Part shown: one piece after another, positions 6,800-39,033 of the stretch
Numbering within the stretch: the stretch's first letter is position 1
Layout: each line of letters starts with the position of its first letter
Virus record (IMG/VR): IMGVR_UViG_647533161_000007
Length of the DNA: 47,228 nucleotides
Direction: 5' to 3' (one strand)
Source of the DNA: a virus
Taxonomy: Duplodnaviria; Heunggongvirae; Uroviricota; Caudoviricetes
Program-made: the position numbers and the translations under genes
Notes under the pieces: model-generated
The model's database searches: none
The model's input: only the letters and a program-made list of their open reading frames with translations
Told to the model about the DNA's origin: nothing

Positions 6800-6809
6800 A
6801 TTCACCCCA

Positions 6810-6837: not shown

Positions 6838-6863
6838 GTCATAACACTGTGTTACCTGGCTAA

Positions 6864-7463
6864 TCAGAACTTATAACCGACACCCACGATGAAACCGTCA
6901 GTGCGCCAGTCGCCACTGCCGGAGCCTTCATAAGCAATATCAATGGCCACGGATTCGGTCGGGTTAAACTGCACGCCAGCTCCCCACGCCAGAGACGTGT
7001 TGCTGTGGCGACCGTCATCACTTCCGGTCAGCACGTCGTGCGTTTTCCCCTTGTTGTCAGTTACGCGGAGATAATCCCCGGAGAAAGTCGACACACGGCT
7101 GTAAGCCATACCCGCCATCGCATACGCGCTGAACCATTCATTCACGCGCACAGACGGCCCCACCATCACGCTGAACCAGCGGTTACGCACGGAATCTTCA
7201 TGCCAGCGGGTATCGCTGTAACGGGTAAGCTGGCGATTCTTGTCTCCTGCATAGCTGAATGACGTCACCAGCCCCAGTGTGTCCGTAAACTCATAACGGT
7301 ATTTCACGTTAATCCCGTTCAGATCATCACTGCCGGGAACGTTCGTCCGGGCATGAAGATACCCCGCGCTCAGCGTGGACTGATGTTCAGACGCCCATGC
7401 AGGCGCACCGGATACGGCCAGACAAATGGCTGCGGACAAAATGGCGGCATAAAGTTTACGCAT
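6864..7463 (-). CDS. lom: Lom-like outer membrane beta-barrel protein (Ail/Lom/OmpX family)
   Basis: 199-aa ORF with signal peptide and C-terminal ...GYKF; located between J and stf as in lambda. Confidence 0.85.
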
Positions 7464-7487
7464 AATTACCTCTCGCTTTTCTGCAAT

Positions 7488-7511
7488 AAAAAAGGCGTCA
7501 TTTCTGACGCC
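7488..7511 (-). terminator. Intrinsic terminator-like hairpin between J and lom
   Basis: 7-bp stem ggcgtca/tgacgcc (7494-7500, 7505-7511), loop tttc, U6 on the minus strand (plus A6 7488-7493). Confidence 0.5.
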
Positions 7512-7529
7512 CGTTCTGGGTTATAAAAT

Positions 7530-11180
<3,651 letters not shown>

Positions 11181-11240
11181 TCCTCACGCTCCATAAACGA
11201 TAAAACCGCCCGGAGGCGGTTTCACATAAAACATTTTGCA

Positions 11241-11888
11241 TCAGCGACCAATCACCACAACCTGACCACCATCCCCTTCGTCTGCCGTGCTGATCTCCTG
11301 AGAAACCACACGTGACCCCACGCGCATTTCACCGTACAGAACAGGCAGAACATTGCCCTGGGCAACCATGTTATCCAGTGAGGAGAAATAGGTGTTCTGT
11401 TTGCCGTTATCTGTACTGGCTGCCGTGGGCGTCCTGGCTTTCGGTGCCAGCATCTGCGCCACTCCGCCCAGGATCATACTGGCCCCTGCCGCATACATGC
11501 CCGATACAGCCGCGGCCCCCAGCCAGCCCACAGGGTTCCACCATGCCACCGCAATCAGCGCCGCCCCAAGCACCACCTGAAACACACCGCCACTTTTAGC
11601 TCCCGCCAGACGCGGCACGATGTGGATCACGGCACCATTTGCCAGCGGCTCATTAAGACGGGCAGATAATTCATTTTCGCCTGCATCACGCCCGGCAATG
11701 CGCACCTGATACCAGCCCTCATTCAGTTTCTGACGAAACACCGGGAGCTGTGTGGCCAGTGCCCGGATGGCTTCAGCCCCCGTTTTCACACGAAGGTCGA
11801 TACGGCGACCAAATCGTTGCAAATCCCCGTAAAGGCAGATGCGTGCCATGCCCGGTGACGCCAGAGGGAGTGTGTGCGTCGCTGCCAT
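11241..11888 (-). CDS. I: Tail assembly protein I
   Basis: 215-aa ORF (ATG at 11886-11888) resembling lambda gpI, Gly/Ala-rich hydrophobic C-terminal half; position between K and J. Confidence 0.8.
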   Translation of the reverse strand: MAATHTLPLASPGMARICLYGDLQRFGRRIDLRVKTGAEAIRALATQLPVFRQKLNEGWYQVRIAGRDAGENELSARLNEPLANGAVIHIVPRLAGAKSGGVFQVVLGAALIAVAWWNPVGWLGAAAVSGMYAAGASMILGGVAQMLAPKARTPTAASTDNGKQNTYFSSLDNMVAQGNVLPVLYGEMRVGSRVVSQEISTADEGDGGQVVVIGR

Positions 11889-12529
11889 TTGTCGGTGTAC
11901 CTCTCTCGTTTACTCAGTTGTTCAGGAATATGGTGCAGCAGCTCGCCGTCGCCACAGTAAATGGCGGCATGATTCGGCACCGATGAACCAAAACAGCACA
12001 GCAGCACATCGCCCGGCTGGGCCGCTGACAACGGCACCTGATACAACCCCGTTGCCTCCATATTATCCAGATAGAGATTCTGGCCGTGACGCCACCAGTC
12101 ATCCCCGCGATGAAAATCCGGCATCTCAATTCCCGCCAGATGGTAAGCGTCCCGGAACAGCGTGTAACAGTCCGTCACCCCGTGCTCAAAGCGCCGCCCG
12201 GTGAGATGCGGCACACAGCGGAATTTATGAATCGCCCCCCGGCAGACCAGCCACCACGGCAAATCACTCTGCACCTGCAGCCGCCGGTCGGCCTCACTCA
12301 GCCAGGGCAGACCACCGGGGTGGCTGTGGACCAGCGCCACAATCTCTCCCTGCATTTCTGCACTCAGCCAGTCCTCCGGCGACATCCGGAAATACGCCTC
12401 CGGCTCACCAGAGATATTCACGCAGGGAAAATATCTTTCCCCCTCCGGTGTTCTCACCACGAAGCCGCACGACTCCGCTGGCGCACATCGCCGGGCGTGC
12501 GCCAGAATCGCTGATTCTGTCTCTGTCAT
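11786..12529 (-). CDS. K: Tail assembly protein K (JAMM/MPN plus NlpC/P60-like)
   Basis: Resembles lambda gpK; HSHP motif (JAMM-like); first ATG at 12527-12529 (track start 12538 is GTG). Confidence 0.85.
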   Translation of the reverse strand: MTETESAILAHARRCAPAESCGFVVRTPEGERYFPCVNISGEPEAYFRMSPEDWLSAEMQGEIVALVHSHPGGLPWLSEADRRLQVQSDLPWWLVCRGAIHKFRCVPHLTGRRFEHGVTDCYTLFRDAYHLAGIEMPDFHRGDDWWRHGQNLYLDNMEATGLYQVPLSAAQPGDVLLCCFGSSVPNHAAIYCGDGELLHHIPEQLSKRERYTDKWQRRTHSLWRHRAWHASAFTGICNDLVAVSTFV

Positions 12530-12534
12530 GGGAT

Positions 12535-13233
12535 TCACTGCGAAAGTTTGTTAATGGAAAGGAAGCCGCCAAAGTTGCCGACGTTATTGCGAAACTTACA
12601 GCCGCTCAGGCATTTGCTGCATTTATCCTTCGTGATATCGGACGTCGGCTGATCATATTCATCCGCGACCGCCGGACCGTGATAACCGCACTCGTCACCG
12701 CGATAGGTCCAGGTGCAGGTGTTGGCCAGCATGATGCGCCCCGGAAAAACGGCACCGTCCGTTTCCGTCGGCGTGGACAGTACAAAAGAGGCACTCACCG
12801 CGCTCAGTTCGCTGCACTGCTCGATGCGCCAGCGGCTGATCACCTCCTGCTCAGGATCGGCGTCACTGTTTCCGTTGACGAAGTTCACCGCATCCAGAAA
12901 ACGGGCGTAAACCTTACGCCTGACCACCGTTCCGCCGACCAGACTCTGCAGATCTTCCGCCATCCCGGTGACCATGCCGTGCAGGTTAGAAACCGTCAGT
13001 GTCGGACGGGCAGCACTGCCCTTGCCATTCAGTTCAAATCCCGTCCCCTGAATGGGGTATGCCTGATACTGCCGCCCCTGCCAGGTAACCGGCTCACCTT
13101 TTTCGTTCTGCTCATTACAGAAAAAATAACGTTCACCACCGACCTCTGTCAGATCGATTTCCCAGAGCACCACCTGGGCTGACTGAGTGAGGCGTGTCGT
13201 CTCATGATGTGTTTCCTGTGGAATATCCTGCAT
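12535..13233 (-). CDS. L: Minor tail protein L
   Basis: 232-aa ORF resembling lambda gpL, Cys cluster near C-terminus; ATG at 13231-13233. Confidence 0.85.
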   Translation of the reverse strand: MQDIPQETHHETTRLTQSAQVVLWEIDLTEVGGERYFFCNEQNEKGEPVTWQGRQYQAYPIQGTGFELNGKGSAARPTLTVSNLHGMVTGMAEDLQSLVGGTVVRRKVYARFLDAVNFVNGNSDADPEQEVISRWRIEQCSELSAVSASFVLSTPTETDGAVFPGRIMLANTCTWTYRGDECGYHGPAVADEYDQPTSDITKDKCSKCLSGCKFRNNVGNFGGFLSINKLSQ

Positions 13234-13242
13234 CAGAGCCTC

Positions 13243-13572
13243 CTATGCCACGACCTGTTCAAAATCTGCCGTTATGGTTACCCACAACGCCCCCACGCTT
13301 GCCGACCATTTACGACAAACCACCCTGATCGGCTTCCAGTCATAAGGTGGCGTCCACTGAAATGCGCGGACGCCACCGTGCCGTTCCAGAAAGGCTTTTA
13401 AAGATGGGTGTTCACATTTACGAACACGTATCGTCACGCTGTAAGTCGACAACTGGTTATTCAGTCCCGCCGCACGACGCTGTTCATAACCATCGCCAAG
13501 CTTCACTGTCACCACTTTCGGCTCTGATACCACATTCATATCCGGGCGCACTTTCCAGTGAAACGTCTCCAT
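13243..13572 (-). CDS. M: Minor tail protein M
   Basis: 109-aa ORF resembling lambda gpM; TAATG overlap with the H stop at 13570-13574. Confidence 0.85.
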   Translation of the reverse strand: METFHWKVRPDMNVVSEPKVVTVKLGDGYEQRRAAGLNNQLSTYSVTIRVRKCEHPSLKAFLERHGGVRAFQWTPPYDWKPIRVVCRKWSASVGALWVTITADFEQVVA

Positions 13573-16500
13573 TACCGATATGCTCCACTTAACCGACCAC
13601 CATCACGGGCCTGCTGTTGCATAAAGTCCGCTGCCGCTTTTTTCCCGAGGTCATAAACCGCCTTCAGGGCAGCCGGACCTATCTGCCCGTTCGTGCCATC
13701 GTTATTGATCTCGATGTTGTACTGCGGGGAAAACATCGCCATACCTGAACCCCCAATATCCGCCACAACCCCCAGCTTACCGTCAGCACCACGACGCAAT
13801 GGCAGAATGGCTTCAGGTCCCGCTTCCCCCATCACACCCGCGCCTTTTGCAAAAGCAAAAAACGTCGGACGGTTAACCACCGTGCCACTGTAACGACTCA
13901 AATCAGCAGACTGATAAATCCCCCCATTGGCATTCAGGGAAAGGCTGCTGAGATCAAATCCCAGCACACTGCCAATCCCTTTTATCGATTTCATCATGGT
14001 TGCCTGCGCCAGGATTTTCGCCATATCTGACAGCACAGAAGAGGTGAAGGATTTGAAATTGAGTTTGCCGGTAGTGACAAAAGTTGCCAGGCCATTTCCC
14101 ATGTTGCTGAAGGCTGACGAGAACACCTGTTCTGCTGTTCCTGCCGTATTATCTGCATCCACGGTAAAATCCTGAAATGCACGCAGGACTCCGTTTTTCC
14201 AGTTACCCTGCACAACTTCAAGCTGTTGCCAGTAACGGCGATTCTCATTCAGTTGTCGGTTCAGGCTCTCCGTCAGCGCCTGCTCGGCCTTTCTGTAGTC
14301 ATCCGTGTTATATGTTCCTTTCTGCTCACTATCCCGCCTCAACTGCTCCAGCTGTTGCTGGTATTTCTGGCGAAGACTCAGTTGTACCTGATATCGCTGC
14401 CGCTGCTGATCACCCATACCCACCGTGGCGATATCCAGGTCATGTTGCTGACGCTGAGCGCGCTCTTCTTCAGCCAGTTGACTGGTCAGCTGAATTGTTT
14501 TTTTCTTCAGCTCGTTGAGTGCCGTCTGTTTCTGAAGCTCCTGCTGTTTTACATCCAGCAGCGTCAGTGCCTGAATCAGTTCATCTTTACGGGCCAGCAC
14601 ACTCTTTTCATCTGCCGTCAGTTTTTTCCCGTCCAGGTCGCTGATGCGCTGCTGCAGAGCCAGAAGCTGTTTATGCGCTTCTGTCATCCTTTCCGTGGCA
14701 ATGCCTGCTGACTGTCTGGCAGCAGCAATCTGTCCTTCCACCTGTGCCTGTTGCTGACTGTACTGCAGCAATAACCGGGTGGCCTCATCATTACGGGGTT
14801 CGCGTGTTTTTTTCTTACCGGATGCCAGGGCTTTCTCGTAACGTTCATTTTCACGTTGTATCGCTGCATCCCTGACAGCCTGATCGGCGTACTGCATGGA
14901 ATTAATACGCGCAATTTCACGCTGATGTCGTGCTGCTTCCGTTTCATTCATCCGGTTCAGTGCAGCATTTTCAGCATTACGTCGTTTCTGTTGCTCCTGA
15001 TAATTCCGCTCTGCCTGCTCTTTTGCATCCTGCAAATCCTTCTGGCGTTTTTTCTCCTGAAGATCGTTAAGACGCTGCTGATCGTATTCAACCTGAGAAG
15101 ATGATGCCGTCCAGGGGAGTCTTTTCGCCCGCGACACTTTCTCCTGTAAAGCGGCAATCTGTTCATCCAGCGAGTCTTCACGACCAATATTCATGGCCGC
15201 ATCCCAGAAACGACTCCACAAATCAGACAGATACTTCAGCGTACTGCCAAGCGCATTGAGGTTATTATCAATATCCGCAGTACGCCGACCGGTTTCCTCT
15301 GCCAGTGCAGACATGGCTATCCGTGCAGCATCACTGGACCGTCCCTGATCCCCAAGGACACGTATCTGCTCAAGCTGAGTGGCAGTAAGAAAATGCAGCT
15401 CATTGTCCAGAGCCTTCGCGGCATTTACAGGATCATCCTTCAGCCGCTTAAACTGATTTATGGTATCGCTGACCGACTGGCCAACCGATCGCTCCATCTG
15501 TGCGGCAGCTCTCGCCACCATACCGATATCGTTTCCACGAAATGCACCACTCCCCACCACCTGAGCCAGCGCACCGGCTGCAGCATGTTGCGTGATACCA
15601 TTCCCGGAAATAGCACGACTGAGCGTCCACAGCTGCCCGGCAGTGACTCCGGCATAATGCCCCGTCAGCGACAACTGGCGGTTAAATTCTTCCCCCTCCT
15701 TCTGACCGTCATACCAGGCTTTACCCAGACCATAGACGGACGCGGCAATACCGCCAATAACCCCGCCAAGCATCATGCCTTTCGGTGACATCAGAGTGTC
15801 TATCCATCCGGCACGGTTAGCCAGCGTTATCCCGGATCCCCTCAGCGCCCCTAAATTGCCGCGGGCCAGTTCACCTATCAGAACGCCAATCTCCTGGCGG
15901 GCCGCTGCACTTTTCAGACCCAGCGAATGCGTGGCTTTTCCTGCCTGCTCCATTTTGCGGATATACACTTCTGCAGCACTGCTTACCCCCAGCTGGGCAG
16001 CCTTAGCACGAAGCAACTCAGAAGAAGAAAGATTCTGGCGGGTTGCCTGCTCTTTAAGCTGACGGATAAACGCCACTTTCTGTCGGGTAGCCTCTTCCTC
16101 AGCCTGCGTAAGAACACGGGTTTTCGCCGTAACCTCAGAAATCAGCGCCAGATAATCCTGCTGACCAATCCCGCCACTGTTTCTGGCCTGTCGGATCTGC
16201 TGCTGAATACGCTGTAATTCCTGCAGCCCCGCACTGGCCTGTTTCACACTGTCAATCTGACGATAAAACGCGGCAGCCGCTTTATCCTGAGCCTCCGCCA
16301 GAGCCATGGCCTGCGCCTGTTCCTCGCGCATTTTCTGGCTCAGTGCCTCCATACGCTGGCGGGTTTGCTCCACCTCGCGGGCCATGCGTTCATGAGCCTG
16401 TGCGCTCTTCTCCACCGTCTGCGCATGGACGGATGCGGCTGTTGCAGCCGAAGAAGCCGCCTGCATTGTCTGCCGGGCGGCCTGAGTCTGACGCTCCATA

Positions 16501-16637
16501 AAACGCTGCATACGGGCAGAAGACCGTTCTGCATCGCTGGCTGCACCATTCAGAAGGTTTTTGATACGGGGAATTTCATTTTTAAACTCTGCCGCATCAA
16601 TCCCCAAATCAATGACCAGGTTGGCTATCTGGTCCAT
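13572..16637 (-). CDS. H: Tail tape measure protein H
   Basis: ~1021-aa coiled-coil-rich ORF, C-terminus NNDGTNGQIGPAALKAVYD resembles lambda gpH; ATG at 16635-16637 preceded by GGAGGTG. Confidence 0.85.
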   Translation of the reverse strand: MDQIANLVIDLGIDAAEFKNEIPRIKNLLNGAASDAERSSARMQRFMERQTQAARQTMQAASSAATAASVHAQTVEKSAQAHERMAREVEQTRQRMEALSQKMREEQAQAMALAEAQDKAAAAFYRQIDSVKQASAGLQELQRIQQQIRQARNSGGIGQQDYLALISEVTAKTRVLTQAEEEATRQKVAFIRQLKEQATRQNLSSSELLRAKAAQLGVSSAAEVYIRKMEQAGKATHSLGLKSAAARQEIGVLIGELARGNLGALRGSGITLANRAGWIDTLMSPKGMMLGGVIGGIAASVYGLGKAWYDGQKEGEEFNRQLSLTGHYAGVTAGQLWTLSRAISGNGITQHAAAGALAQVVGSGAFRGNDIGMVARAAAQMERSVGQSVSDTINQFKRLKDDPVNAAKALDNELHFLTATQLEQIRVLGDQGRSSDAARIAMSALAEETGRRTADIDNNLNALGSTLKYLSDLWSRFWDAAMNIGREDSLDEQIAALQEKVSRAKRLPWTASSSQVEYDQQRLNDLQEKKRQKDLQDAKEQAERNYQEQQKRRNAENAALNRMNETEAARHQREIARINSMQYADQAVRDAAIQRENERYEKALASGKKKTREPRNDEATRLLLQYSQQQAQVEGQIAAARQSAGIATERMTEAHKQLLALQQRISDLDGKKLTADEKSVLARKDELIQALTLLDVKQQELQKQTALNELKKKTIQLTSQLAEEERAQRQQHDLDIATVGMGDQQRQRYQVQLSLRQKYQQQLEQLRRDSEQKGTYNTDDYRKAEQALTESLNRQLNENRRYWQQLEVVQGNWKNGVLRAFQDFTVDADNTAGTAEQVFSSAFSNMGNGLATFVTTGKLNFKSFTSSVLSDMAKILAQATMMKSIKGIGSVLGFDLSSLSLNANGGIYQSADLSRYSGTVVNRPTFFAFAKGAGVMGEAGPEAILPLRRGADGKLGVVADIGGSGMAMFSPQYNIEINNDGTNGQIGPAALKAVYDLGKKAAADFMQQQARDGGRLSGAYR

Positions 16638-16971
16638 AACGCACACCTCCGGAAATACCTTCCCCAAGATGCATCAGTTCTTCGTCCGTTCGCTCCGGTA
16701 TCCCGTTCTCTTCCGGTAAAAGGCTGAAATCAGCCACCGCAGCATCACTGCTACCGGACACCATTCTCACGATCAATGCCTTCAGCGAGGCAAACTGCGC
16801 ATCCATCCACACATCACTGAAGCTCTGCATCCGGAAATAATCGCCCCACTCACCAAGCTCAGTGGCCGACATTTCCGACAGCATCCGCCGCCAGTCTGCC
16901 CGCCGGAACTCCCGGGCAAGCCGCATGACAAACTGCATTTCCCGCGTCAGGACTTTTCCGGCGTCAGCACC
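16609..16971 (-). CDS. T: T segment: -1 frame C-terminal extension of tail assembly chaperone G (GT fusion)
   Basis: Frame open from 16971 to stop at 16609, overlapping the 3' end of G in the -1 frame; candidate slippery heptamer GGAAAAG at 16953-16959. Confidence 0.7.
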   Translation of the reverse strand, partial: GADAGKVLTREMQFVMRLAREFRRADWRRMLSEMSATELGEWGDYFRMQSFSDVWMDAQFASLKALIVRMVSGSSDAAVADFSLLPEENGIPERTDEELMHLGEGISGGVRYGPDSQPGH

Positions 16972-17336
16972 TCATGCTCCAAATCCCCGGCATTCTCAAT
17001 GACTCCCATACCGCTCAGCGACAGAACCATCTCCGCCCCCGCTCCCAGGGCATCATACGACCATGTTGTAATAACGGATGCGCAAAGCGTCTCAACATCC
17101 TGAGACTGTTCCGCATTCCACAGTGAGCGGGAAACCAGCCAGGCATTGATATCCATCCCCATCCGCAGAAAAGCAATCTGTCGTTCAGCCTCCGGCAGTT
17201 CTCCCTCTTCGGCATCAAACTTTGCCGTTCGCTGCTGAACAAACGCCAGATATTCAATTCTCTGCAGCCCGGACAGCTCACTGAGCACCACGGACTGCTT
17301 TTCATAATTAAACGTGCCCTGTTTCAGAAACATCAT
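16947..17336 (-). CDS. G: Tail assembly chaperone G
   Basis: Resembles lambda gpG (MFLKQGTFNYE...); ATG at 17334-17336 preceded by AGGTGGAG; track start 17375 is TTG and would include the V terminator. Confidence 0.8.
   Translation of the reverse strand: MMFLKQGTFNYEKQSVVLSELSGLQRIEYLAFVQQRTAKFDAEEGELPEAERQIAFLRMGMDINAWLVSRSLWNAEQSQDVETLCASVITTWSYDALGAGAEMVLSLSGMGVIENAGDLEHEVLTPEKS
16953..16959 (-). other. Putative -1 programmed ribosomal frameshift slippery site (GGAAAAG)
   Basis: Heptamer G-GAA-AAG in the G frame, 2 codons before the G stop; -1 shift enters the T frame (GGA-AAA). Lambda uses G-GGA-AAG at the equivalent point. Confidence 0.5.
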
Positions 17337-17349
17337 GTTCTCCACCTGC

Positions 17350-17373
17350 AAAAAAGCCCCGGATAACCGGGGC
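17350..17373 (-). terminator. Intrinsic terminator/attenuator between V and G
   Basis: 7-bp stem gccccgg/ccggggc (17356-17362, 17367-17373), loop ataa, U6 on minus strand. Confidence 0.5.
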
Positions 17374-17393
17374 AAATGATGAGTATCGTCCTG

Positions 17394-18137
17394 TTAACCT
17401 GCGGCGCTGACAGCCACCGCAGCCACTGCCACAAAATCGCCGTCAGAAGTCATGCCCACAATGCTGACACTGCCCTGCTTCACGCCTTTCACCGTGGCCA
17501 CAAGCCCGTTCAGGGTCACCGTGGCAGTCTGTGGATCTGTCGAATGCACACTGATCGCTTTGTCACTGGCTCCGTCAGGTTTTACTGTAAAGGTCAGCGT
17601 GGTGGTTGCTCCCACTTTTACACTGGCAGATGCCGGTGCCACCGTCAGCCCGGTAACGCTCACTGTTTCAGTGCCTTCCTCTGCCAGATACGGACGCCCC
17701 ACACCGCTGATTTTCACTGTGCGGGTCATCACGTCTTTTGAGGCAATGGTTTTACCCAGTGAGCTCAGCCAGCCACGGAAAACATCAACAGTGCCGTTGG
17801 GATATTTGATACGAAACGCGCAGACTTCACCGGAGTCGAACAACTGAACCAGTTTTTTCTGCCCGCTGTCACCCGGACGCCAGGCCAGCGTCGCCGAAGT
17901 ATCACCGACGGATTTCTGCCCCTGGGTTGTCGTTTTCCAGTCTGCATCTTCATCATCGAGATAAGTGTCATCTTCTGCATCAGCGGTCATTTCGCCAGGT
18001 TGCAGATCCTTCACCATCGCAAGACGCAGCCAGTCAGTGTCCGATAAAGGGTTCGCAAACGCATCGCCCTTGCCGGTGTACATCCAGAACGTCGTTCCCG
18101 CACCTTTCGTTTTTGCCAGTGGATTTGGTGTGGTCAT
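17394..18137 (-). CDS. V: Major tail protein V with C-terminal Ig-like domain
   Basis: Resembles lambda gpV; ATG at 18135-18137 preceded by AGGAGGTG. Confidence 0.85.
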   Translation of the reverse strand: MTTPNPLAKTKGAGTTFWMYTGKGDAFANPLSDTDWLRLAMVKDLQPGEMTADAEDDTYLDDEDADWKTTTQGQKSVGDTSATLAWRPGDSGQKKLVQLFDSGEVCAFRIKYPNGTVDVFRGWLSSLGKTIASKDVMTRTVKISGVGRPYLAEEGTETVSVTGLTVAPASASVKVGATTTLTFTVKPDGASDKAISVHSTDPQTATVTLNGLVATVKGVKQGSVSIVGMTSDGDFVAVAAVAVSAAG

Positions 18138-25606: not shown

Positions 25607-26100
25607 TACTCCTCCTGCTGTAATTCCTCCTCATCATCCGCACCTGCTTCAGTCACCCGCAGGGCTATCTGATCGCGCAGATCATCAATAATGGACTGAA
25701 CACGGCTCACAGCGGCAGGCTGCAGACCGCAGTCACGTTCAAGAATATCCGGTAATGTCTCCAGCACCTGCACGACCGCTTTTGCCCAGATGGCAAACTC
25801 CCGTCTGACATCACTGGCCGGAATGAGTTGTGCCGTTTCCTGTTCGAACTTAAGACGCTCACGTTCAGACTGATACCAGGCTTTGCGCTCATGCGCGTCC
25901 ATTTCGCCTTCTGCAACCGGCGGTGGTAATGCCAGAAATGCCGACACAATATCAACCACCCGATAAAGCTTGAGGTTGCTTTCATGCCCCCCTGCAACGG
26001 GTAGATTTTGCAGCCTTGCCGCAGCAGTCTGGCGATGTACACCTGACAATGCCGCCAGTTGACTGATATTCAGCGTCAGATTTTTTAACTCTCGATCCAT
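25606..26100 (-). CDS. Terminase small subunit (Nu1-like, HTH)
   Basis: 164-aa ORF with N-terminal HTH (ISQLAALSGVHRQTAA), acidic C-terminus; immediately downstream of the cos-like site and upstream of A. Confidence 0.75.
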   Translation of the reverse strand: MDRELKNLTLNISQLAALSGVHRQTAAARLQNLPVAGGHESNLKLYRVVDIVSAFLALPPPVAEGEMDAHERKAWYQSERERLKFEQETAQLIPASDVRREFAIWAKAVVQVLETLPDILERDCGLQPAAVSRVQSIIDDLRDQIALRVTEAGADDEEELQQEE

Positions 26101-26199
26101 ACCCGCTCCAGAATGTTTTAAACATGCATCTTGCGAACAACTTTAGGCAAACGGTGTTAGTGATGAACAAAAAACAATCAGAATCGACACCATAAAAAT

Positions 26200-26345
26200 A
26201 AATCCACTGTAATATCAATCAATTACAGTAGTGGTGATGACGAATAAAATTTCAAAAACTAGCCTTTTTCCGCGACGCTCCCGCCCCGTGGCAGGGGCCC
26301 CCACCGGGAGGACCCGACAGCCTGACAGCCTGACAGCCGTGACGA
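26200..26345. other. cos region: cosB-like IHF site, cosN-like 12-mer, cosQ-position 8-bp triplet repeat
   Basis: Minus-strand acg-GGGCGGGAGCGT-CGCGG (plus 26275..26286) is a 1-mismatch-rich relative of the lambda cohesive end GGGCGGCGACCT; IHF consensus TATCAAtcaaTTA at 26213..26225. Confidence 0.55.
26316..26339. repeat. Tandem 8-bp direct repeat gacagcct x3 beside cosN
   Basis: gacagcct gacagcct gacagccg read directly. Confidence 0.7.
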
Positions 26346-26662
26346 GCATCTGATACAGCGCTTTACATAATGGCATAGGAATAATTCAGAAGGACATCAC
26401 AGCATGCCCACACAAATTAGTGTGAGTGTCCTGTTTCTTCCTACGCACAGGACTGACGAGCATGAGGGGAAAATATGCGAACCATAAATGCCTCATCTTC
26501 AGCAATGCAGCCGGCATCCGAACAGGACGATATTGTAAATTCACCTAATTACGAGGACATTGCAGTAGTTGAATTGCAGCTCTGTATTAGCCTGACAGTG
26601 ACAGAATGCGATATTGACTCTGTCACAGGTGAAATAGTTTGAATGATTAGCAGTTATGGTGC

Positions 26663-26869
26663 TCAGTCAACCACCAGGGAATAATCCTTCGAATTCTTAT
26701 CGTGCTTCACCAACGCTGCCTCAATTGCCCTGAATGCTTCCAGAGACACCTGATGTTCTATACATGCAATTACAACATCCGGGTAACTCATAGAAATGGT
26801 GCTATTAAGCATATTTTTTACACGAATCAGATCCAACGAGAGTTCATCAGCAGATTGTTCTTTATTCAT
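26663..26869 (-). CDS. Hypothetical small phage protein (68 aa)
   Basis: ATG at 26867-26869 with GGAG SD 9 nt upstream; occupies the ynfO position of K-12 Qin. Confidence 0.45.
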
Positions 26870-27169
26870 TTTGTCGCTCCATGCGTTTGCTCGTCATCTA
26901 GCGGTTAAAATATTACTTCAAATCTTACTGCATAAAAGAGGAAAAGTATGAAAGTTTGAGTACATCGACCTTACATACATCTGTCGGTTGCATATCCCTC
27001 CTGGATGCCAGCAAGGCTCAATTTTGTTACGCAATCAACACTATTCATTAAAAACAGGCTTAATATTTGACATAAATCATCAACAAAACACAAAGAGGTC
27101 AGACCAGATTAAAACAATAAACACGATAATGCAAACTACGCGCCATCGTATCACATGGAAGGTTTACCA

Positions 27170-27580
27170 ATGGCTCAGGCTGCCATTTTTAAAGAAATAT
27201 TCGATCAAGTGCGTAAAGATTTAAACTGTGAATTATTTTATTCTGAGCTAAAACGTCACAATATCTCACTTTATATTTACTATTTAGCCACAGATAATAT
27301 TCACATTGTGTTAGAAAACGACAACATAGTGTTAGTAAAAGGACTCAAAAAGGTTGTAAATGTTAAATTCTCCAGAAACAAACATCTTATAGAGACCTCC
27401 TATAATAAGTTGAAATCAAAAGAAATCACATTTCAACAATACAGGGAAAATCTTGCTAAAGCAGGAGTTTTCCGATGGGTTACAAATATCCAGGAACACC
27501 AAAGATATTACTATGCCTTTGATAACTCATTACTATTTACTGAAAGCATCCAGAAAACTACACAGATCTTACCACGCTAA
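27170..27580 (+). CDS. YdfO-like protein (DUF1398 family)
   Basis: 136 aa from ATG 27170 (SD GGAAGG 27157-27162); same position and length as recalled K-12 YdfO. Confidence 0.6.
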
Positions 27581-27732
27581 ACCATAACGTCCGGCTTCTC
27601 TCACTCCTGAGCCGGACTGCATTGGTTTAATAAAAACCATCAACAATTGTGATTTAGATATTCGGAACCATTCAAATATAACAAAACCCCGTAAAAACGA
27701 GGTTTATGGATAAATTTTATTATTGAATACAT

Positions 27733-27905
27733 CAGATTAAATTAATCTTGACATCATAGCTTTCAAGACCCGTCATTTTTTCCCGTGCGGTAAACTGAAT
27801 ACTGGTAACTTCTTTCCCGGTCTTTTTCTTAAGTTCAATAATTTTTTTGTTATATATTCAGAAATATCTGCTTCTGCTTTTGTTTTTAAGTTTTCAATAT
27901 TCATC
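27733..27905 (-). pseudogene. GnsB-like gene disrupted by a -1 frameshift in an A7 run
   Basis: ATG 27903-27905 with AAGAGGAA SD; N-terminal frame MNIENLKTKAEADISEYITKK stops after 43 aa; downstream frame encodes ...IIELKKKTGKEVTSIQFTAREKMTGLESYDVKINLI*; restoring one A (plus-strand T7 at 27843-27849) gives a 57-aa Gns-like ORF. Confidence 0.6.
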
Positions 27906-28075
27906 ATTTCCTCTTTTAGTCTGTTATGACTTTCCAGTTACACAGTAAGTCGATTATATGGTGCAAACGTGTAAAAGATAAGATGAAACATCGCAATAAT
28001 CAACATACGATAGTCTAAATTTTACACAAACAGACAAAGAGAATTTTCCTGAATTATCAATACAATAGCATCAAA

Positions 28076-28231
28076 TCAACTCAAGAGCCTTATTGCTGCT
28101 TCCAGAATTTCTTCTGAAGTAACATGTCGATCCGCGGCTACATAAATGACTTTATGATCTCCGGTCAGAGATGGAAACCCTGCGGCCATTACAGTAAGGT
28201 GTGTTTTTTCGCCATTTGGATATTCACGCAT
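28076..28231 (-). CDS. YnfN-like small protein (51 aa)
   Basis: ATG at 28229-28231 gives 51 aa MREYPNGEKTHLTVMAAG...; matches K-12 YnfN by position and length. Confidence 0.5.
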   Translation of the reverse strand: MREYPNGEKTHLTVMAAGFPSLTGDHKVIYVAADRHVTSEEILEAAIRLLS

Positions 28232-28575
28232 GATGGTGTTAACTCCAGTCATCGCTGGCACTACCACTGCTGGTTCAGAGTTAAAAAAACTATGATTTTT
28301 TCATGATGTTACCGTAGTATGTGAGTATCCATCGAATAGATACCAAGCAAAAAAGCTCCCGAAGGAGCCTTCATTTTCACTTTTTTAAATCCAACGACAG
28401 ACGGCTGGCATTTAAGTATTGTGAAATATTATCAAATGTAATCATCATTGATTTACAAAAGATACATTTTGCCCCGAAAGGATTCATGTCAGAAACATCA
28501 AAAGATGATGTTCTATACTGGGAACCATGACAACACGGGCATCTAAAGTGAATATGGTTTGTAATATTGTCTACC

Positions 28576-28788
28576 TCAAAGCGCCACTACATGAACAGCG
28601 GCAGGACCTTTAGGTCCGTTCTCAATACCAAATTCAACTTCCTGATTCTCAGTTAATGTTTTGAAATCGTTGCTCTGAATTGCTGAGAAATGGACAAACA
28701 CATCTTTGCTGCCATCTTTCGGCGTGATGAAACCAAAACCTTTTTCAGGGTTAAACCATTTCACTAAACCAGTCATTTTGTTAGACAT
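28576..28788 (-). CDS. cspI: Cold shock protein (CspA family)
   Basis: 70-aa ORF with cold-shock domain motifs KGFGFI and VFVHF. Confidence 0.85.
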
Positions 28789-29151
28789 AATTATTACCTT
28801 TTGAAGAAATTAGCCCTTGGGCAGAATGGTCCGAAAAAAAATATCAGAGAGAAAAACCAACAAGGAAATCTCAAGAGGTACAAATAATAAAATTATAACA
28901 ATGACTGCTTCAGATAAATTTGTAACAAACCAGAACACCATTAACGCATGATTAACCACCCATAGCAAGGATTACTTTTGTAAAGAAAAACACAGCAATG
29001 AAAGAATAGCTTTATTTATTAATAATAACGTGTCATTCTGATTAAGACCTTTTATCTTACCCTTAAGATTTCAGGAATTTTGGCTCATGGAAGAGTCCTT
29101 TTTATTTAAATTTTACATTCCGCGATGTAAATGTTCCGATTTAATATTACC

Positions 29152-30175
<1,024 letters not shown>

Positions 30176-30179
<4 letters not shown>

Positions 30180-30463
30180 ATATATTTATGATGAGGACGC
30201 TCGTGCTTATTGGCAGGATTTTCAATCTTAAAGGAGTACTGATGCTGCAGATAAGACTCAACTTTTTCTGACAATTTTTCTGCTACTTCCAGGAAGACTT
30301 GCCGGACGCTCCTTCTGGCTGCTGCCTCATAAAACTCCAGCGCAGCTCCTTCAACACGGTCCATGGCGACATCCAGGTCAAAAATTTCACCGTCAAAGCG
30401 TTCTTTGTCCTGTAAGGCTACAGTTACCGTAACTTTATTCTCAAAATTACGGACTCCTTTCAC
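30176..30463 (-). CDS. YdfR-like small phage protein (DUF1327-like)
   Basis: 95-aa ORF between holin and endolysin, as ydfR is in K-12 Qin; ATGA overlap with endolysin start. Confidence 0.5.
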
Positions 30464-30491
30464 AACCAGTTCATAGTCTTGAGTCGTTGGA

Positions 30492-30707
30492 TTACTCTCC
30501 TCTCGCAGCCTTACGCCTGTCTTCTTTAATCTTGAAATAAAGATTTGTCAGATACGTCAGCAGGCCAAAAACCAGGCTACCCAGCACACCGATTGCAGCC
30601 CACTGTGACGGAGTTACTTTATCGAGTAACTGCAATGCCCAGAAACCAGCATTACCCGCCGATGTGCCATAGGCAACACCTGTTGTTAACTTATCCATTG
30701 ATTTCAT
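30492..30707 (-). CDS. Pinholin, phage-21 S-type class II holin
   Basis: 71 aa from the dual-start motif MKSMDK...; closely resembles phage 21 S ([37 protein letters not shown]). Confidence 0.8.
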
Positions 30708-30926
30708 ATCCTCACCCCGATGTACACGGATGGTGCAATATGTTTGAAAAGATCGGAGTCTACGGGGTAGTTTTGACAGCACACGTTGTTCTCAACGGCG
30801 CTAAAAAAACATACACATTAAAAATGTGGGTAATTATTTTGAAAGAAAGTCATATATAAAATAATAATACGAGAAATGTTTTCATATTTAGTGTACTGTA
30901 TACGGCCATTTATACAGGAAAAGCCT

Positions 30927-31097
30927 ATGTCAGAACGTAAAAACTCAAAATCACGCCGTAATTATCTCGTTAAATGTTCCTGCCCAAACTGCACCCAAGA
31001 GTCAGAACACAGTTTTTCAAGAGTACAAAAAGGTGCCCTTTTGATCTGCCCTCATTGCAACAAAGTATTCCAGACAAATCTTAAAGCTGTAGCCTGA
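30927..31097 (+). CDS. Small zinc-ribbon protein (56 aa)
   Basis: ATG 30927 with AGGAAA SD; two CxxC pairs (CSCPNC, CPHC). Confidence 0.45.
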   Translation: MSERKNSKSRRNYLVKCSCPNCTQESEHSFSRVQKGALLICPHCNKVFQTNLKAVA

Positions 31098-31156
31098 TTG
31101 ATTTTATTAGTAACAAGTATTTTTTATATTTTAATAATATATTTAAAGCAGATAAT

Positions 31157-31178
31157 AAAAAACCCGCCTGAGCGGGTT
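31157..31178 (-). terminator. Intrinsic terminator downstream of cspB
   Basis: 7-bp stem aacccgc/gcgggtt (31161-31167, 31172-31178), loop ctga, U-run on the minus strand. Confidence 0.5.
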
Positions 31179-31460
31179 TGAGATTGTGGTGCTTTTTGTG
31201 GGAGTCATCCACTTACGCACTTTGTTTTGCCATGCCAGCAGTTAGCTTCTGCTGTAAAACTATTCATGCAGCAAACCTGCACTTCACCACAATGGTTAGC
31301 ATACTTTTCCTGATTAAGATTTTGCCAAATATGCTAGCCATTGTTTCATGTATTGGACCTCCTTACTTTTTATTAAAGAGATCCAATATTCACTACTCTG
31401 TCCGTATCTCTACTCAGGCATCAGCCTTCTTCGTTATCGTATACAGACGAGCGATGAATT

Positions 31461-31676
31461 TTAATCAGTAATGATGACATTTGCTGCTGCAGGACCTTTA
31501 GCACCACTCTCTATAGAGAAGGTAACCTTTTGACCTTCAAATAAGGTTCGATAATTATCATTCTGAATCGCAGAAAAATGCACAAACACATCTTTACTAC
31601 CATCAACAGGAGAAATAAAGCCGAAACCTTTATCAGCGTTAAACCATTTTACTAAACCAGTCATTTTATTTGACAT
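31461..31676 (-). CDS. cspB: Cold shock protein CspB
   Basis: 71-aa [41 protein letters not shown]...; ATG at 31674-31676. Confidence 0.85.
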
Positions 31677-31976
31677 TCTACATTCCTTAACTTGAGCCTT
31701 TCGGCATAAATGGTTTGCATAACAGAAACGACTTCGTACTTAATTGGAGAGACTCAAAGAAGGAATAAGTGAATAACACCTGAAATGAGAACTGCTTTAG
31801 TAAACTACTTCGTATATCGTCTGTTCTTCAAACCGACGCAATCATTAACGCATAGTTGAACATATGAAGCAATGTTTATTTTAGACATCCAGCCATCTTC
31901 AACCCCATCAAAAAACTATAGCTTTCTTCAGGAACGTGTGTATAGTGCGCCAAGTTATCAGTATTAAGGAATTTTT

Positions 31977-32189
31977 TTGTCCCGTAAAATGACAGGAATT
32001 GTCAAAACCTTTGACGGCAAAAGCGGCAAGGGTCTTATCACCCCATCCGATGGTCGTATCGATGTCCAGCTTCATGTTTCAGCGCTCAATCTCCGCGATG
32101 CAGAAGAAATTACCACCGGATTACGCGTGGAATTTTGCCGGATAAATGGTCTGCGTGGCCCTTCAGCTGCCAATGTTTACCTTTCATGA
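31977..32189 (+). CDS. cspF: Cold shock-like protein CspF
   Basis: 70-aa [16 protein letters not shown]...[17 protein letters not shown]; first codon is TTG with AAGGAA 6 nt upstream. Confidence 0.8.
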
Positions 32190-34772: not shown

Positions 34773-35024
34773 TTATTCTTCTGCAAAAGCAGAAAAGCCA
34801 GCTTTTATTCCGATCTCTTTCAATGCCTGTAATGAAGTGACAAACTCACCTTCGCGCAAGATAAATCCGTCCGTGACCCGAGCATCCACAAAATTAATTA
34901 ACGCAGCCCCATTCTTTCGCAAACACATAATGCGGTAATGACTAACAAGATTTCCATTTTCAACGCACACAGCATAGAGGCCATCTTCACAAAAAATTTT
35001 ACGCAGTTCTTCGATGTTCATCAT
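34773..35024 (-). CDS. Rem-like hypothetical protein (83 aa), copy inside duplicated gap flank
   Basis: 83-aa ORF in the rem position of K-12 Qin (between ydfU and hokD); identical second copy at 35332..35579. Confidence 0.45.
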   Translation of the reverse strand: MMNIEELRKIFCEDGLYAVCVENGNLVSHYRIMCLRKNGAALINFVDARVTDGFILREGEFVTSLQALKEIGIKAGFSAFAEE

Positions 35025-35214
35025 CAGAATCCTTCCGGATAATTAGCTCTCCCCTTTAAGGGACCATCCCTCTTATCCCTGCGCGCTACTTAAGTATTTT
35101 TGATTCTATTCCGGCACCGTCCAGATCTTCAAACGCGTTGAAAATAAAAACAAAAACCCGCCGAAGCGGGTTAAGTGCGGGTGCGTTGAGGATGCCTGCC
35201 ACATCAGAGGTGGC

Positions 35215-35312
35215 NNNNNNNNNNNNNNNNNNNNNNNNNNNNNNNNNNNNNNNNNNNNNNNNNNNNNNNNNNNNNNNNNNNNNNNNNNNNNNNNNNNNNN
35301 NNNNNNNNNNNN
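35215..35312. other. Assembly gap (98 N)
   Basis: Run of N characters. Confidence 0.98.
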
Positions 35313-35331
35313 GATTGTAGATGAGTTTACT

Positions 35332-35579
35332 TCTTCTGCAAAAGCAGAAAAGCCAGCTTTTATTCCGATCTCTTTCAATGCCTGTAATGAAGTGACAAAC
35401 TCACCTTCGCGCAAGATAAATCCGTCCGTGACCCGAGCATCCACAAAATTAATTAACGCAGCCCCATTCTTTCGCAAACACATAATGCGGTAATGACTAA
35501 CAAGATTTCCATTTTCAACGCACACAGCATAGAGGCCATCTTCACAAAAAATTTTACGCAGTTCTTCGATGTTCATCAT
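35332..35579 (-). CDS. Rem-like hypothetical protein (83 aa), copy adjacent to hok
   Basis: Same ORF as 34773..35024. Confidence 0.45.
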
Positions 35580-35700
35580 CAGAATCCTTCCGGATAATTA
35601 GCTCTCCCCTTTAAGGGACCATCCCTCTTATCCCTGCGCGCTACTTAAGTATTTTTGATTCTATTCCGGCACCGTCCAGATCTTCAAACGCGTTGAAAAT

Positions 35701-35795: not shown

Positions 35796-35951
35796 TTACT
35801 CCTCAGGTTCGTAAGCTGTGAAGACAGCGACCTCCGTCTGGCCGGTTCGGATTCGTACCTCGCAGAGGTCTTTCCTCGTTACCAGTGCCGTCACTATGAC
35901 GGTTAAACAGATGACGATCAGGGCGATTAACATCGCCTTTTGCTGCTTCAT
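35796..35951 (-). CDS. hokD: Hok-family type I toxin (HokD/RelF-like, 51 aa)
   Basis: MKQQKAMLIALIVICLTVIVTALVTRKDLCEVRIRTGQTEVAVFTAYEPEE from ATG 35949-35951 with AGGAG SD. Confidence 0.85.
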   Translation of the reverse strand: MKQQKAMLIALIVICLTVIVTALVTRKDLCEVRIRTGQTEVAVFTAYEPEE

Positions 35952-36625
35952 AGCCTGCTTCTCCTTGCCTTTCGGCTCGTAAGAGGCTAACCTACATGTG
36001 TCTAGCATGAAATTGGCCTCAGATTAATGTTAAGCGTCTTGCAGGACGCGTAATGTTAACTGGGGCTTTTCTCTATCTGCCTTTGGTGTTCATGCCCGAG
36101 GCAGATAGCCTCAAGCACCCGCAGCCATTCTACTTAACTACCGTTACCTCGCCAATATGAAATCAGTCAGAAAGGCGATCCATAAGAACAATAGCAAGAC
36201 AATAAATCGCCATTACAGCCGTAATAGCCAGCGCACATTTGAGAACCAGCACCACAACCTCCTGTATTGGACGTAGACCAGTCCTGATGAATATGAGGCT
36301 GTCTCGTCAGTGATTCAATACAACTATTGGGTATAGTTTCTCTGATTTTTTCTGTGGAAATGGGGCACAACCACTAGTCACCACCAGCACTTCTTTTAAT
36401 ACGCAAAGTCCGACACAAGCTAACCTTCTAGTCCGCTTTGAGCGAAAAACAGCCATAATTTAGTGCCACGTATATAATGATAGAGCTATTCAAGCTAGCA
36501 ATTCACATGTAAAAATTCAGAGGGTAGAAGCACATAGTTATAAATGTTGGCTCCATCGACAAATTGCGGTCTCAAGTACATTTATTAATGTTGCCCCCGC
36601 ATTAACAAATCATCAAGGTGACGAC

Positions 36626-38413
36626 ATGGACGATATTAATATCAGCCTCGACGAACTTAACACTATTGATTTATCCCCCTTAATCCAGAGTAAGCTGCCA
36701 GTTACCTGCTTTGATATCACAAAGTATCTTTCTAGCCTAGGTGATGGAAGAGCGGAGATAAGACTGCTAACCCATATTTGCGGTTTTCACTTTCGTCCCG
36801 AAAATCCACAGGTACCATTTGGTCCGTGCTTTCAAAGCAGCCAAGGTAGATCTGCAATTCCGGATGACATTAACGGGTTGTCGCTGGAGGTACTTTCTCA
36901 ATTTTGCCCGACGATAGAGCTACCCGAACTTCAAGCTCGTATTGCTGATACACTTTGGGTTCGTAAAATTGGTGGAATCCGTTTTCCTTTGCTGGCAGTC
37001 CGTGCTTATTATGCGTCCAGTATAGCTATTATGACATCGCAAGGGACGTGGGTTAGTGCTTTAGAACGCCTAGAGCGTGCGCTTAGGCTGTGTTGTTTTT
37101 TTCGAAAGAATACTGATTTCAGGGATGAATTTGATCAGCTTTCGGCACATCTACTAGCAGAGTATGAACGTACCAGAGAACAAGGCGATTCACCTTATCC
37201 GCTGCGACTCCTGCAACTCGATATCGACTGTAAAGTGAGTGAGCCATCTTTTATTGCCCAGGAACTCCTGTTTCTGACAAAAAACTATCTGGCTCAAAAA
37301 TTATTTTCATTTGCCGTCGATGCCTGTAAAACCGCAATCACGATTGCGAATAGGTGCTGTGACAGAGATACACAGTTTGAATTCTGGCGGCTTCTTGCCG
37401 ATACACATCTGGAAGAGTCAAAATTCCAAGATGGCGGTATGATTTCGGCAGCCTGCATGCAGAATGCTATTGAAGCACTGGCTAATATTCCAGGAACCCG
37501 AATAGAACGTCTTGCGCTGTATGAAGAAATGCGTGATTACCAAATCGAATCCCGTCACCAGATGTCTATCCTTCAGTCTCCCCCTCAAGATATTAGTGAG
37601 ATTGTCCATCAAGCCAAGAGTCGGGTAGTCGGAAGAGATATGTTTGATATGGTTTTCAGACTTGCGATGCTGGTCTGTCGGCCAACCAGCATTGAGAGAC
37701 TTAAGGCTCAAGCAATAGAACAAAAGGCCAACAGCATAGCTTGGATGTTTGGATCAACACATATTGATCATGAGGGAATGACACTTGCTCGCATACCCGC
37801 AGGATTGGGGATTGATGATGCAAATGGGGCAGTTATTTGGCCCATAATGATGACGAGAATGCGTATCGACCATGAGTTGGCAGTAGCTGGGCAAATTATT
37901 CCTGCTACAGATGAGATCACAATGAAATATCCAATCTCGGAGGCGTTTTTTCGCGATATGTTCATCAATCATCCCTTCATCCCGTTTGGGCATGAAGAGT
38001 TTTTCATCAAGGGTATGGTTTGCGGTTTCAATGGAGATTTTATGACGGCATGCCACGTGTTGATTCCCCAGATCGAAAATAGTCTGAGATATGTGGCTAA
38101 AATTAAAGGTGAGGAACCATCGCAGCTTCACGGGGACGGTTCGCAAGAGCGAAATGGACTCAAGGGATTACTAGATAATCCACTGATTATTGAAGCTTTC
38201 GGCGTAGACATAATTGGCAATCTTCAGGCCTTACTGGTAGATAAAATCTATGGTGATTTACGAAATCAACTAGCTCACGGATATGTGCCTGCCGGTTACT
38301 ACAATCAACCTCCCTGCATTTTTGCATGGTGGCTTGTATTGCACATTCTAATGAACCCTACGGCGAGATACTGGCAAGCCACTTATGGCCAAGAGAGTGA
38401 GGCTCAGACTTAA
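36626..38413 (+). CDS. Uncharacterised 595-aa protein with C-terminal HEPN-like R-x4-H motif; candidate defence/abortive-infection cargo gene
   Basis: ATG 36626 with AAGGTGA SD; RNQLAH encoded at 38261-38278 (aa 546-551); on the strand opposite to flanking early genes; visibly AT-richer than phage structural genes; no recognisable phage core function. Confidence 0.8.
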   Translation: MDDINISLDELNTIDLSPLIQSKLPVTCFDITKYLSSLGDGRAEIRLLTHICGFHFRPENPQVPFGPCFQSSQGRSAIPDDINGLSLEVLSQFCPTIELPELQARIADTLWVRKIGGIRFPLLAVRAYYASSIAIMTSQGTWVSALERLERALRLCCFFRKNTDFRDEFDQLSAHLLAEYERTREQGDSPYPLRLLQLDIDCKVSEPSFIAQELLFLTKNYLAQKLFSFAVDACKTAITIANRCCDRDTQFEFWRLLADTHLEESKFQDGGMISAACMQNAIEALANIPGTRIERLALYEEMRDYQIESRHQMSILQSPPQDISEIVHQAKSRVVGRDMFDMVFRLAMLVCRPTSIERLKAQAIEQKANSIAWMFGSTHIDHEGMTLARIPAGLGIDDANGAVIWPIMMTRMRIDHELAVAGQIIPATDEITMKYPISEAFFRDMFINHPFIPFGHEEFFIKGMVCGFNGDFMTACHVLIPQIENSLRYVAKIKGEEPSQLHGDGSQERNGLKGLLDNPLIIEAFGVDIIGNLQALLVDKIYGDLRNQLAHGYVPAGYYNQPPCIFAWWLVLHILMNPTARYWQATYGQESEAQT

Positions 38414-38631
38414 AGTGAATAAGTTTACGAAGTTGGCACTTCCGGATGCATGTCCATATGAGTTGAGGCGATTTGGTTAATAAGGTTGAGTGCTGCTGAA
38501 ATTATTCGATGTCCGCTTTTGGCACAAAGCGGACAACCACGCCAGATCTACCCTGTGCCATGAAAAATGAGAATGTCAATTCACTCCTGAACTAATGCTT
38601 TTTAATCTAGTAACGTCTAAAATACCTAACA

Positions 38632-39033
38632 TTATCCCTGATAAAATGCCAGTATGCGCTGCATAACTTCACTCATCCGGCACTCGCGACAGATTATGTT
38701 TAGGCGACTGTCGTAGCGACGTATTTCTCCATCAGGTAACGACCAGATAAGGTCCGGATCAACCACAGCTGTTTTCTTCACCTTTGCCCTCGAGAGTTTT
38801 TTGCGGGCGTTTTGCCAGTCCTTACGCGCCTGTTCAGACGGGAATAACCCGTAGCCGGAGTTGTATACATCGCCACTGGCTACCAGCTCTCTGGCAAGAA
38901 CGCTCATCAGATATCTAGTCGCACCTGTTTTAGCTTCCAGTTGCCGTAACGTCTCACGACCGCTCTGGCGCACGAGTTCCACCACCTGCCCTTTAATTTT
39001 TTCCCGCTCTTCTTGTGTAAAAACTTTTGCCAC
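38632..39033 (-). CDS. Hypothetical protein (133 aa), possible DNA-binding
   Basis: GTG start with GGGGGA SD; basic, downstream of the replication gene in the same orientation; no family recognised. Confidence 0.45.
   Translation of the reverse strand: MAKVFTQEEREKIKGQVVELVRQSGRETLRQLEAKTGATRYLMSVLARELVASGDVYNSGYGLFPSEQARKDWQNARKKLSRAKVKKTAVVDPDLIWSLPDGEIRRYDSRLNIICRECRMSEVMQRILAFYQG

Follow-up and report, generated by a model that had tools for sequence, protein, structure and literature searches.

A prophage cargo gene of Escherichia coli very probably encodes a single-polypeptide HEPN protein, proposed to act in phage defence

The virus record IMGVR_UViG_647533161_000007 (IMG/VR; Caudoviricetes), analysed here over its full stretch of 47,228 nucleotides (the window), is a Qin-like Escherichia coli prophage that carries a 595-residue open reading frame (ORF) on the plus strand in a slot between hok/sok and a DUF977 gene. 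The encoded protein is very probably a HEPN protein, and on balance we favour the view that it is a single-polypeptide HEPN ribonuclease, carried as a self-contained cargo moron and acting in phage defence. The best-supported reading is that of a one-protein, infection-triggered HEPN RNase that would act by abortive infection. A first-pass annotation, made from the DNA sequence, had already pointed to this gene as a horizontally acquired module with a HEPN-like R-x4-H motif near its C-terminus.

Comparison with Pfam places the protein in two families, DUF7380 (residues 4-166, E 2e-34) and DUF4209 (PF13910; residues 484-573, 34 bits against a cut-off of 22.3). The latter is the C6orf70-type HEPN family, which together with the invariance of the motif in homologs upholds the HEPN signature claimed for the C-terminus. 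Both domains are present in all 44 of the diverse homologs that we aligned, with DUF4209 scoring above the gathering cut-off (best E 2.6e-15). Although these full-length homologs diverge down to 24% identity, twelve columns are invariant, and only twelve; they include R546, H551 and G552 of the motif as well as Q482, E484, S486 and R488, which form a block (PQIENSLR) on the long helix preceding it. The residue following the motif arginine is N or H in 44/44 sequences. The conservation of RNQLAH, proposed earlier as a check on the assignment, thus extends to full invariance of R546 and H551 in this set. Judged from the alignment, the conservation pattern strongly supports a functional HEPN active site, of which the Q482/E484/S486/R488 block would probably form a second part, or else line a substrate pocket. 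In the N-terminal domain the near-invariant residues of the same alignment are A104, R105, D108, A124, Y128, R151 and A152, and we propose that DUF7380 serves as the sensor or regulatory part of the protein.

PADLOC returned two models of the phage defence candidate PDC-S39 (PDLC05012, E 8.4e-103 over residues 43-581; PDLC05011, E 2.6e-102), in keeping with the suggested label of candidate defence gene, and no other PADLOC model, AbiJ included, matched at E <= 1. Pfam and PADLOC, both named in the first-pass annotation as checks, therefore yielded a HEPN family and no characterised non-HEPN family. NCBIfam gave no match for the protein, the only PHROGs families to match were 5183 and 31613, both of 'unknown function', and no solved relative was found in the PDB by sequence-profile search, whether the profile covered the full length or the C-terminus.

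In order to examine the fold, the full-length protein was modelled with AlphaFold2 (pLDDT 89.6, pTM 0.71), giving a nearly all-helical chain with a small alpha/beta head. Fold searches with the whole chain returned mostly TPR and designed helical-repeat proteins; residues 400-595 were therefore modelled alone (pLDDT 90, pTM 0.85), and the isolated domain was found to adopt a HEPN fold, which is the outcome that the structural check suggested for this gene was meant to probe. Its best structural matches are the HEPN toxins of HEPN-MNT pairs (7ae2, 5yep, 8xdj), accompanied by archaeal and bacterial HEPN proteins (2hsb, 1ylm, 1wwp, 1ufb, 1wol) and by Csm6, the HEPN domain of sacsin, AbiA, LsoA, RnlA, Las1 and MtlR. 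The C-terminal helix is modelled as part of this domain. No convincing transmembrane segment was detected in the protein by hydropathy, the best Kyte-Doolittle 19-mer (1.75, residues 520-538) lying inside the modelled HEPN domain.

HEPN enzymes build a composite active site from two domains and act as metal-independent endoribonucleases. As the alignment shows the R-x4-H motif once only per chain, a homodimer would be required for activity, and RNase activity of the 595-residue protein is accordingly predicted for a dimeric form. The HEPN domain might instead be a non-catalytic binding or regulatory module, as in MtlR and sacsin, making the protein a scaffold or regulator. Inactive HEPN families, however, typically lose R-x4-H, whereas here R546, H551, the polar residue after the arginine and the Q/E/S/R block have all been kept over deep divergence. 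The family is moreover listed with a conserved motif and predicted to be catalytically active (PMC3710099), and we regard a purely non-catalytic role as very improbable.

The gene behaves as a mobile unit in a variable slot. When the region was aligned by blastn with prophages carrying other cargo, homology stopped sharply at 36445, 36424 or 36185 and resumed at 38506-38524; these breakpoints delimit a cargo module of about 2.06 kb (~36446..38505), consisting of the 595-residue gene, ~180 bp of its own upstream DNA and a tail of ~90 bp. The description of a horizontally acquired moron is thereby substantiated: this is a stand-alone mobile cargo gene. In thousands of genomes the same flanks enclose other inserts, among them a DUF262 protein matching PADLOC NsnA and PD-T4-2_A, an AIPR protein matching PADLOC AbiU and MzaE, and QueH, methyltransferase, alpha/beta hydrolase and hypothetical genes. 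In K-12 the insert is relB-relE, located next to hokD, exactly where the first-pass annotation had placed relBE. The hok-DUF977 interval thus behaves as a cargo hotspot, and our literature search found no paper describing it. The AIPR, DUF262 and QueH cargos are co-oriented with the early operon; the 595-residue gene runs opposite to it, as had been noted, every neighbouring gene being on the minus strand (hok, rem, a small hypothetical gene, DUF968/ydfU and a Q-type antiterminator on one side; DUF977, a replication-type protein, a YdaT-family protein and cro on the other). This orientation would fit expression independent of the repressed early transcript.

A slot that holds relBE in K-12 and adjoins hok/sok could also house a toxin or addiction module. 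The HEPN RNase would then play no part in phage defence but act as a toxin that stabilises the prophage or locus, and an antitoxin not yet recognised, be it a small protein, an RNA or the N-terminal domain of the RNase itself, would keep it in check. The structural similarity to toxins of HEPN-MNT pairs would suit such a module, as would a cyanobacterial homolog (Trichocoleus sp. FACHB-262, 642 residues) that is followed by a 140-residue PIN-domain gene with a 4-nt overlap at the stop codon (locus coordinates 9926..10348). We looked for a partner in the spacers and in six diverse homolog loci. Neither the 505-bp upstream nor the 218-bp downstream spacer contains an MNT-like or other annotated ORF, and no neighbour gene family is conserved across the six loci; the Trichocoleus pair is possibly a lineage-specific two-gene variant. 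At 595 residues, with a large sensor-like region, the protein is also unlike small toxins of toxin-antitoxin systems. The adjacent hok/sok, with a full-length Rfam match to sok (116 bits, 35946..36120, minus strand, model positions 1-157), is an independent type I toxin-antitoxin locus and not the partner of the 595-residue ORF. The gene thus constitutes a single-gene, stand-alone system without an obligatory partner, and we consider a toxin or addiction role decidedly unlikely. As a separate observation, the hok of this prophage seems to retain its own sok region, while in K-12 relB-relE adjoin hokD directly.

Of 5,426 complete E. coli genomes, 148 contain the gene with its spacers to at least 80%, and 145 of these also contain at least 80% of the surrounding 3.7 kb; the exact protein (WP_000340970.1) occurs on at least 1,000 contigs. 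Compared with a Citrobacter ortholog (81% identical) the gene shows a dN/dS of 0.126, that is, purifying selection. Sequences departing from the intact form were also seen: in E. coli FDAARGOS_1290 (NZ_CP070048.1) an otherwise identical gene is split by the insertion sequence (IS) IS4 and annotated as separate DUF7380 and DUF4209 proteins, and the 90% cluster of the protein also holds several shorter members (151-584 residues). An exhaustive profile search collected 7,435 clusters at 50% identity, 2,854 of them at E <= 1e-30; the 150 best clusters all measure ~550-670 residues and match end to end. This makes the family a large one, with a fixed architecture among its closest members.

Homologs occupy diverse settings. 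In Enterobacter kobei the gene lies in a prophage between Q and the holin gene, and in Citrobacter at a prophage end next to S24-peptidase and DinI genes. The homolog of Oleispira antarctica RB-8 is bracketed by IS transposases (DDE, IS66) and group II intron reverse transcriptases (locus 6233..17687), ~6 kb from a CBASS operon with a Cap15 effector and a CD-NTase, and a Pseudomonas homolog is found among unannotated genes. In Vibrio cholerae the homolog belongs to a chromosomal islet. In each of the three loci of this species that we inspected, a same-strand gene of 160 residues without a Pfam match follows 172 bp downstream of the homolog (locus coordinates 9958..10440); the pair is inserted between tauE and carB, and the 160-residue gene has no counterpart in the window.

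On the molecular level, we hypothesise the following course of events for a one-protein, infection-triggered RNase. Expression in the lysogen would not depend on the early operon of the phage, which is repressed, and the nuclease would be held inactive by its own N-terminal region; being large and conserved, this region of DUF7380 and helical repeats is the obvious candidate both for autoinhibition and for sensing. On infection, a cue from the phage (most likely one of its proteins, bound by the helical repeats) would release two HEPN domains or bring them together to form the composite active site with R-x4-H, and cleavage of cellular and/or phage RNA (tRNA, rRNA or mRNA) would abort the infection.

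How far a defence function can be asserted depends on several points that weigh against it. No convincing promoter was recognised for the gene by a standard scan or a hexamer scan, and the V. cholerae homolog has housekeeping genes on both sides and no obvious trace of a mobile element. PADLOC carries PDC-S39 expressly as one of 145 untested candidates (Payne et al. 2024). Two E. coli DUF4209 proteins listed by DefensePredictor among 'predicted novel defense genes', WP_021514655.1 (595 residues, log-odds 4.3) and WP_000710784.1 (602 residues, log-odds 7.4), are both absent from its table of cloned units (PMC13092281). For a 24%-identical relative of the same architecture, pFR103 'Putative HEPN' from the P2 hotspot of E. 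coli S88, the clone included the native promoter and eight coliphages were used as challenge; the system appears only in Table S2B, 'additional tested systems', outside the validated table (Rousset et al. 2022). Finally, we found no DUF4209 member, bacterial or eukaryotic, with a demonstrated activity or phenotype in the searchable literature. Because of this and of the negative result for the P2-type relative, we hold a defence function to be only somewhat better supported than its absence.

Some of these points would also be expected of a phage- or host-serving RNA-processing or stress nuclease with a non-immune role in lysogen physiology or in host RNA turnover at induction, comparable to the part proposed for ERMARD in ER-associated RNA degradation. 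The V. cholerae copy among housekeeping genes and the lack of validated defence for pFR103 are compatible with it, and the eukaryotic branch of the family, described as endoplasmic-reticulum membrane proteins with a transmembrane helix, is predicted to function in RNA degradation or a stress response (PMC3710099). Such a nuclease would, however, hardly show the patchy distribution seen among complete E. coli genomes or lie in accessory slots of unrelated prophages and also among IS elements. Nor would it be expected opposite in strand to the phage early operon, in a slot shared with Abi-like and restriction-like genes. We consider this account unlikely and retain the infection-triggered defence RNase as the preferred reading.

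Turning to the gene itself, the 1788-bp plus-strand ORF of the first-pass annotation was recovered with its ATG start and 595 codons, and codon arithmetic puts R546-N-Q-L-A-H551 at 38261..38278, as had been stated. The Shine-Dalgarno sequence AAGGTGA is present at 36615..36621, although its spacing to the ATG is 4 nt and not 5. The candidate -10 element TATAAT, reported at ~36471, is likewise present, at 36473..36478, but the best -35 that accompanies it is only CAGCCA (3/6). In the hexamer scan, which counts consensus matches only, TTCAGA-17-TATAAA at 36516..36544 scores equal to this CAGCCA-17-TATAAT pair at 36450..36478. As the standard promoter scan gave no plus-strand site upstream of the gene and a regional total not above that of shuffled sequence, any promoter named for the gene is a guess.

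The hairpin reported downstream as a 9-bp stem at 38511..38534 is real, but longer by one base pair and slightly shifted (Table 1), and has no U-tract on either strand. An alignment with three prophages carrying other cargo shows that its 5' arm is cargo-specific while its loop and 3' arm are conserved backbone; this rules out a hairpin wholly of backbone origin, and among the four prophages compared only the DUF4209 cargo supplies a fully complementary 5' arm. The AT-richness ascribed to the gene (GC 0.447; GC at third codon positions 0.403) is clear relative to the structural genes (GC 0.54-0.55) but modest relative to the immediate neighbours (0.47-0.52).

Table 1 Features of the DUF4209 cargo module and its flanks (window coordinates)
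Feature	Position	Strand	Basis or remark
Left flank: hok toxin ORF and sok antisense RNA region	35796..36120	-	Rfam; hokD annotation in identical RefSeq locus
Cargo-specific upstream region with two weak sigma-70-like candidates and Shine-Dalgarno AAGGTGA	36446..36625	+	blastn breakpoints; hexamer scan
Coding sequence, 595-residue DUF7380 + DUF4209 (HEPN) protein	36626..38413	+	ATG start; identical to RefSeq WP_000340970.1 'DUF4209 domain-containing protein'
DUF7380 domain, residues 4-166	36635..37123	+	Pfam; small alpha/beta head, then helices (secondary structure)
TPR-like alpha-helical repeat region, residues ~119-312	36980..37561	+	Overlaps DUF7380 in part
C-terminal HEPN domain, residues ~404-594	37835..38407	+	DUF4209 Pfam match within (38075..38344)
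Q482-x-E484-N-S486-x-R488 block	38069..38089	+	Invariant; on long HEPN helix preceding R-x4-H
Catalytic-type HEPN motif R546-N-Q-L-A-H551-G552	38261..38281	+	Conservation in homologs
Cargo-specific 3' untranslated tail	38414..38505	+	Backbone homology resumes at 38506-38524
Hairpin straddling cargo/backbone junction	38510..38535		10-bp stem, dG -14.7 kcal/mol, z -2.46
Right flank: DUF977 family gene, early operon	38632..39033	-	Pfam E 6.5e-26; annotation of identical locus

Elsewhere in the window, a 594-residue plus-strand ORF at 8304..10088 was considered, on account of its size, as a second copy of the gene and rejected, as it has no similarity to the 595-residue protein and no Pfam match. 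It is spurious: a run of 528 N (8826..9353) removes stop codons inside the tail gene J. The same run creates an apparent low-GC patch in this gpJ-like gene (7530..11180, minus strand), whose frame is continuous across it. Two copies of a 300-nt segment that includes rem, 100% identical, lie at 34776..35075 and 35331..35630 (spacing 555 nt), and a run of 98 N (35215..35312) separates them. Rather than a true duplication, this looks like an artefact of scaffolding in which overlapping contig ends were left unmerged. The region 26001..32000 is markedly AT-rich (GC 0.33-0.44) and, by comparison with an annotated identical locus, probably corresponds to the lysis cassette and the cold-shock-gene (csp) morons of Qin-like prophages.

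As a computational observation our analysis adds little to the identification of the protein, as both the HEPN assignment and the defence-candidate label pre-exist. The original call is sound, its interpretation having stood up wherever it could be checked by computation, but is not a new discovery, and the novelty implied by the first-pass annotation was overstated: the HEPN prediction dates from 2013, a listing as defence candidate is available from PADLOC and DefensePredictor, the protein is common in E. coli, and the only tested relative that we found, a distant one, is unvalidated. No paper was found in our literature searches on DUF7380, WP_000340970, ERMARD combined with HEPN, or hokD combined with hotspot. 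What the analysis contributes is the hok-DUF977 cargo hotspot with its mapped breakpoints, the confirmation of the fold at the domain level, and the link to the tested but unvalidated P2-hotspot relative. Should the protein be an active, infection-triggered RNase, PDC-S39/DUF4209 would be validated as a real one-gene defence system, in a family whose ~7,400 sequence clusters come from proteobacteria, cyanobacteria and other bacteria. The HEPN domain that it has in common with human ERMARD would then also become accessible to biochemistry for the first time, and more defence genes could be sought in the hok-DUF977 interval of Qin-like prophages. Going further, we tentatively raise a bolder possibility, which we think less likely than the defence role itself: proteins of the DUF7380-helical repeat-HEPN type might represent a very large class of immune sensors that consist of one protein and do without an NTPase, the helical repeats directly recognising a phage protein and so switching on the HEPN RNase. 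They might also be the prokaryotic ancestors of ERMARD, and hok-DUF977 might be a defence hotspot not described before, of the same rank as P2 old/tin and P4 psu-int.

Among the closest known families is the C6orf70/ERMARD type. DUF4209 was described as a HEPN family with a conserved motif whose prototype is human C6orf70, now ERMARD (Anantharaman et al. 2013, PMC3710099); the family is reported there as 'fused to TPR', with 'catalytically active bacterial versions' predicted and an occurrence in restriction-modification-related operons. The 595-residue protein resembles these proteins in Pfam membership, in the R-[NH]-x3-H motif and perhaps in its TPR-like helical repeats, but resides in a prophage cargo slot and has no convincing transmembrane segment, in contrast to the eukaryotic members; as the transmembrane helix is a feature of the eukaryotic branch only, its lack does not exclude membership of DUF4209.

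The PDC-S39 candidate came from a 'guilt by embedding' approach and its definition rests on copies found inside BREX, DISARM or type I restriction-modification loci (Payne et al. 2024). Our protein shares with it a near full-length match to the hidden Markov model and the single-gene organisation; its gene, however, lies in a lambdoid prophage slot. The DUF4209 proteins of the P2 gpA-gpQ (old/tin) hotspot, which Rousset et al. 2022 count 193 times as system #13 and 76 times as system #55, are likewise single genes; together with URC09609.1 of phage vB_EcoM-569R9 they have an N-terminal DUF7380-like region and a C-terminal HEPN domain with LIPQxE...LRHKLAHG, but are only ~24% identical to the 595-residue protein and belong to a different phage family and a different hotspot. 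A further entry of Table S2B in that study, the 'HEPN-TPR' protein pFR83 from the P4 hotspot, was considered as a relative and set aside, since in its printed sequence, read without alignment, R-x4-H lies mid-protein and the start is different.

AbiJ, AbiD/F, HEC-08 and the CBS-HEPN protein of DefensePredictor DS-11 likewise combine a HEPN effector and a non-catalytic domain in one polypeptide, but they belong to other HEPN families and have other partner domains. For HEC-08 and DS-11, mutation of the HEPN catalytic residues abolishes defence. Both DefensePredictor DUF4209 proteins show a weak HHblits link to the C-terminal (HEPN) domain of AbiJ (probability 66-67%, covering ~19-20% of the protein; PMC13092281). 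The HEPN-MNT and RnlA/LsoA systems, finally, need an adjacent antitoxin (MNT, RnlB or phage Dmd), whereas the 595-residue gene of the hok-DUF977 slot stands without a partner.

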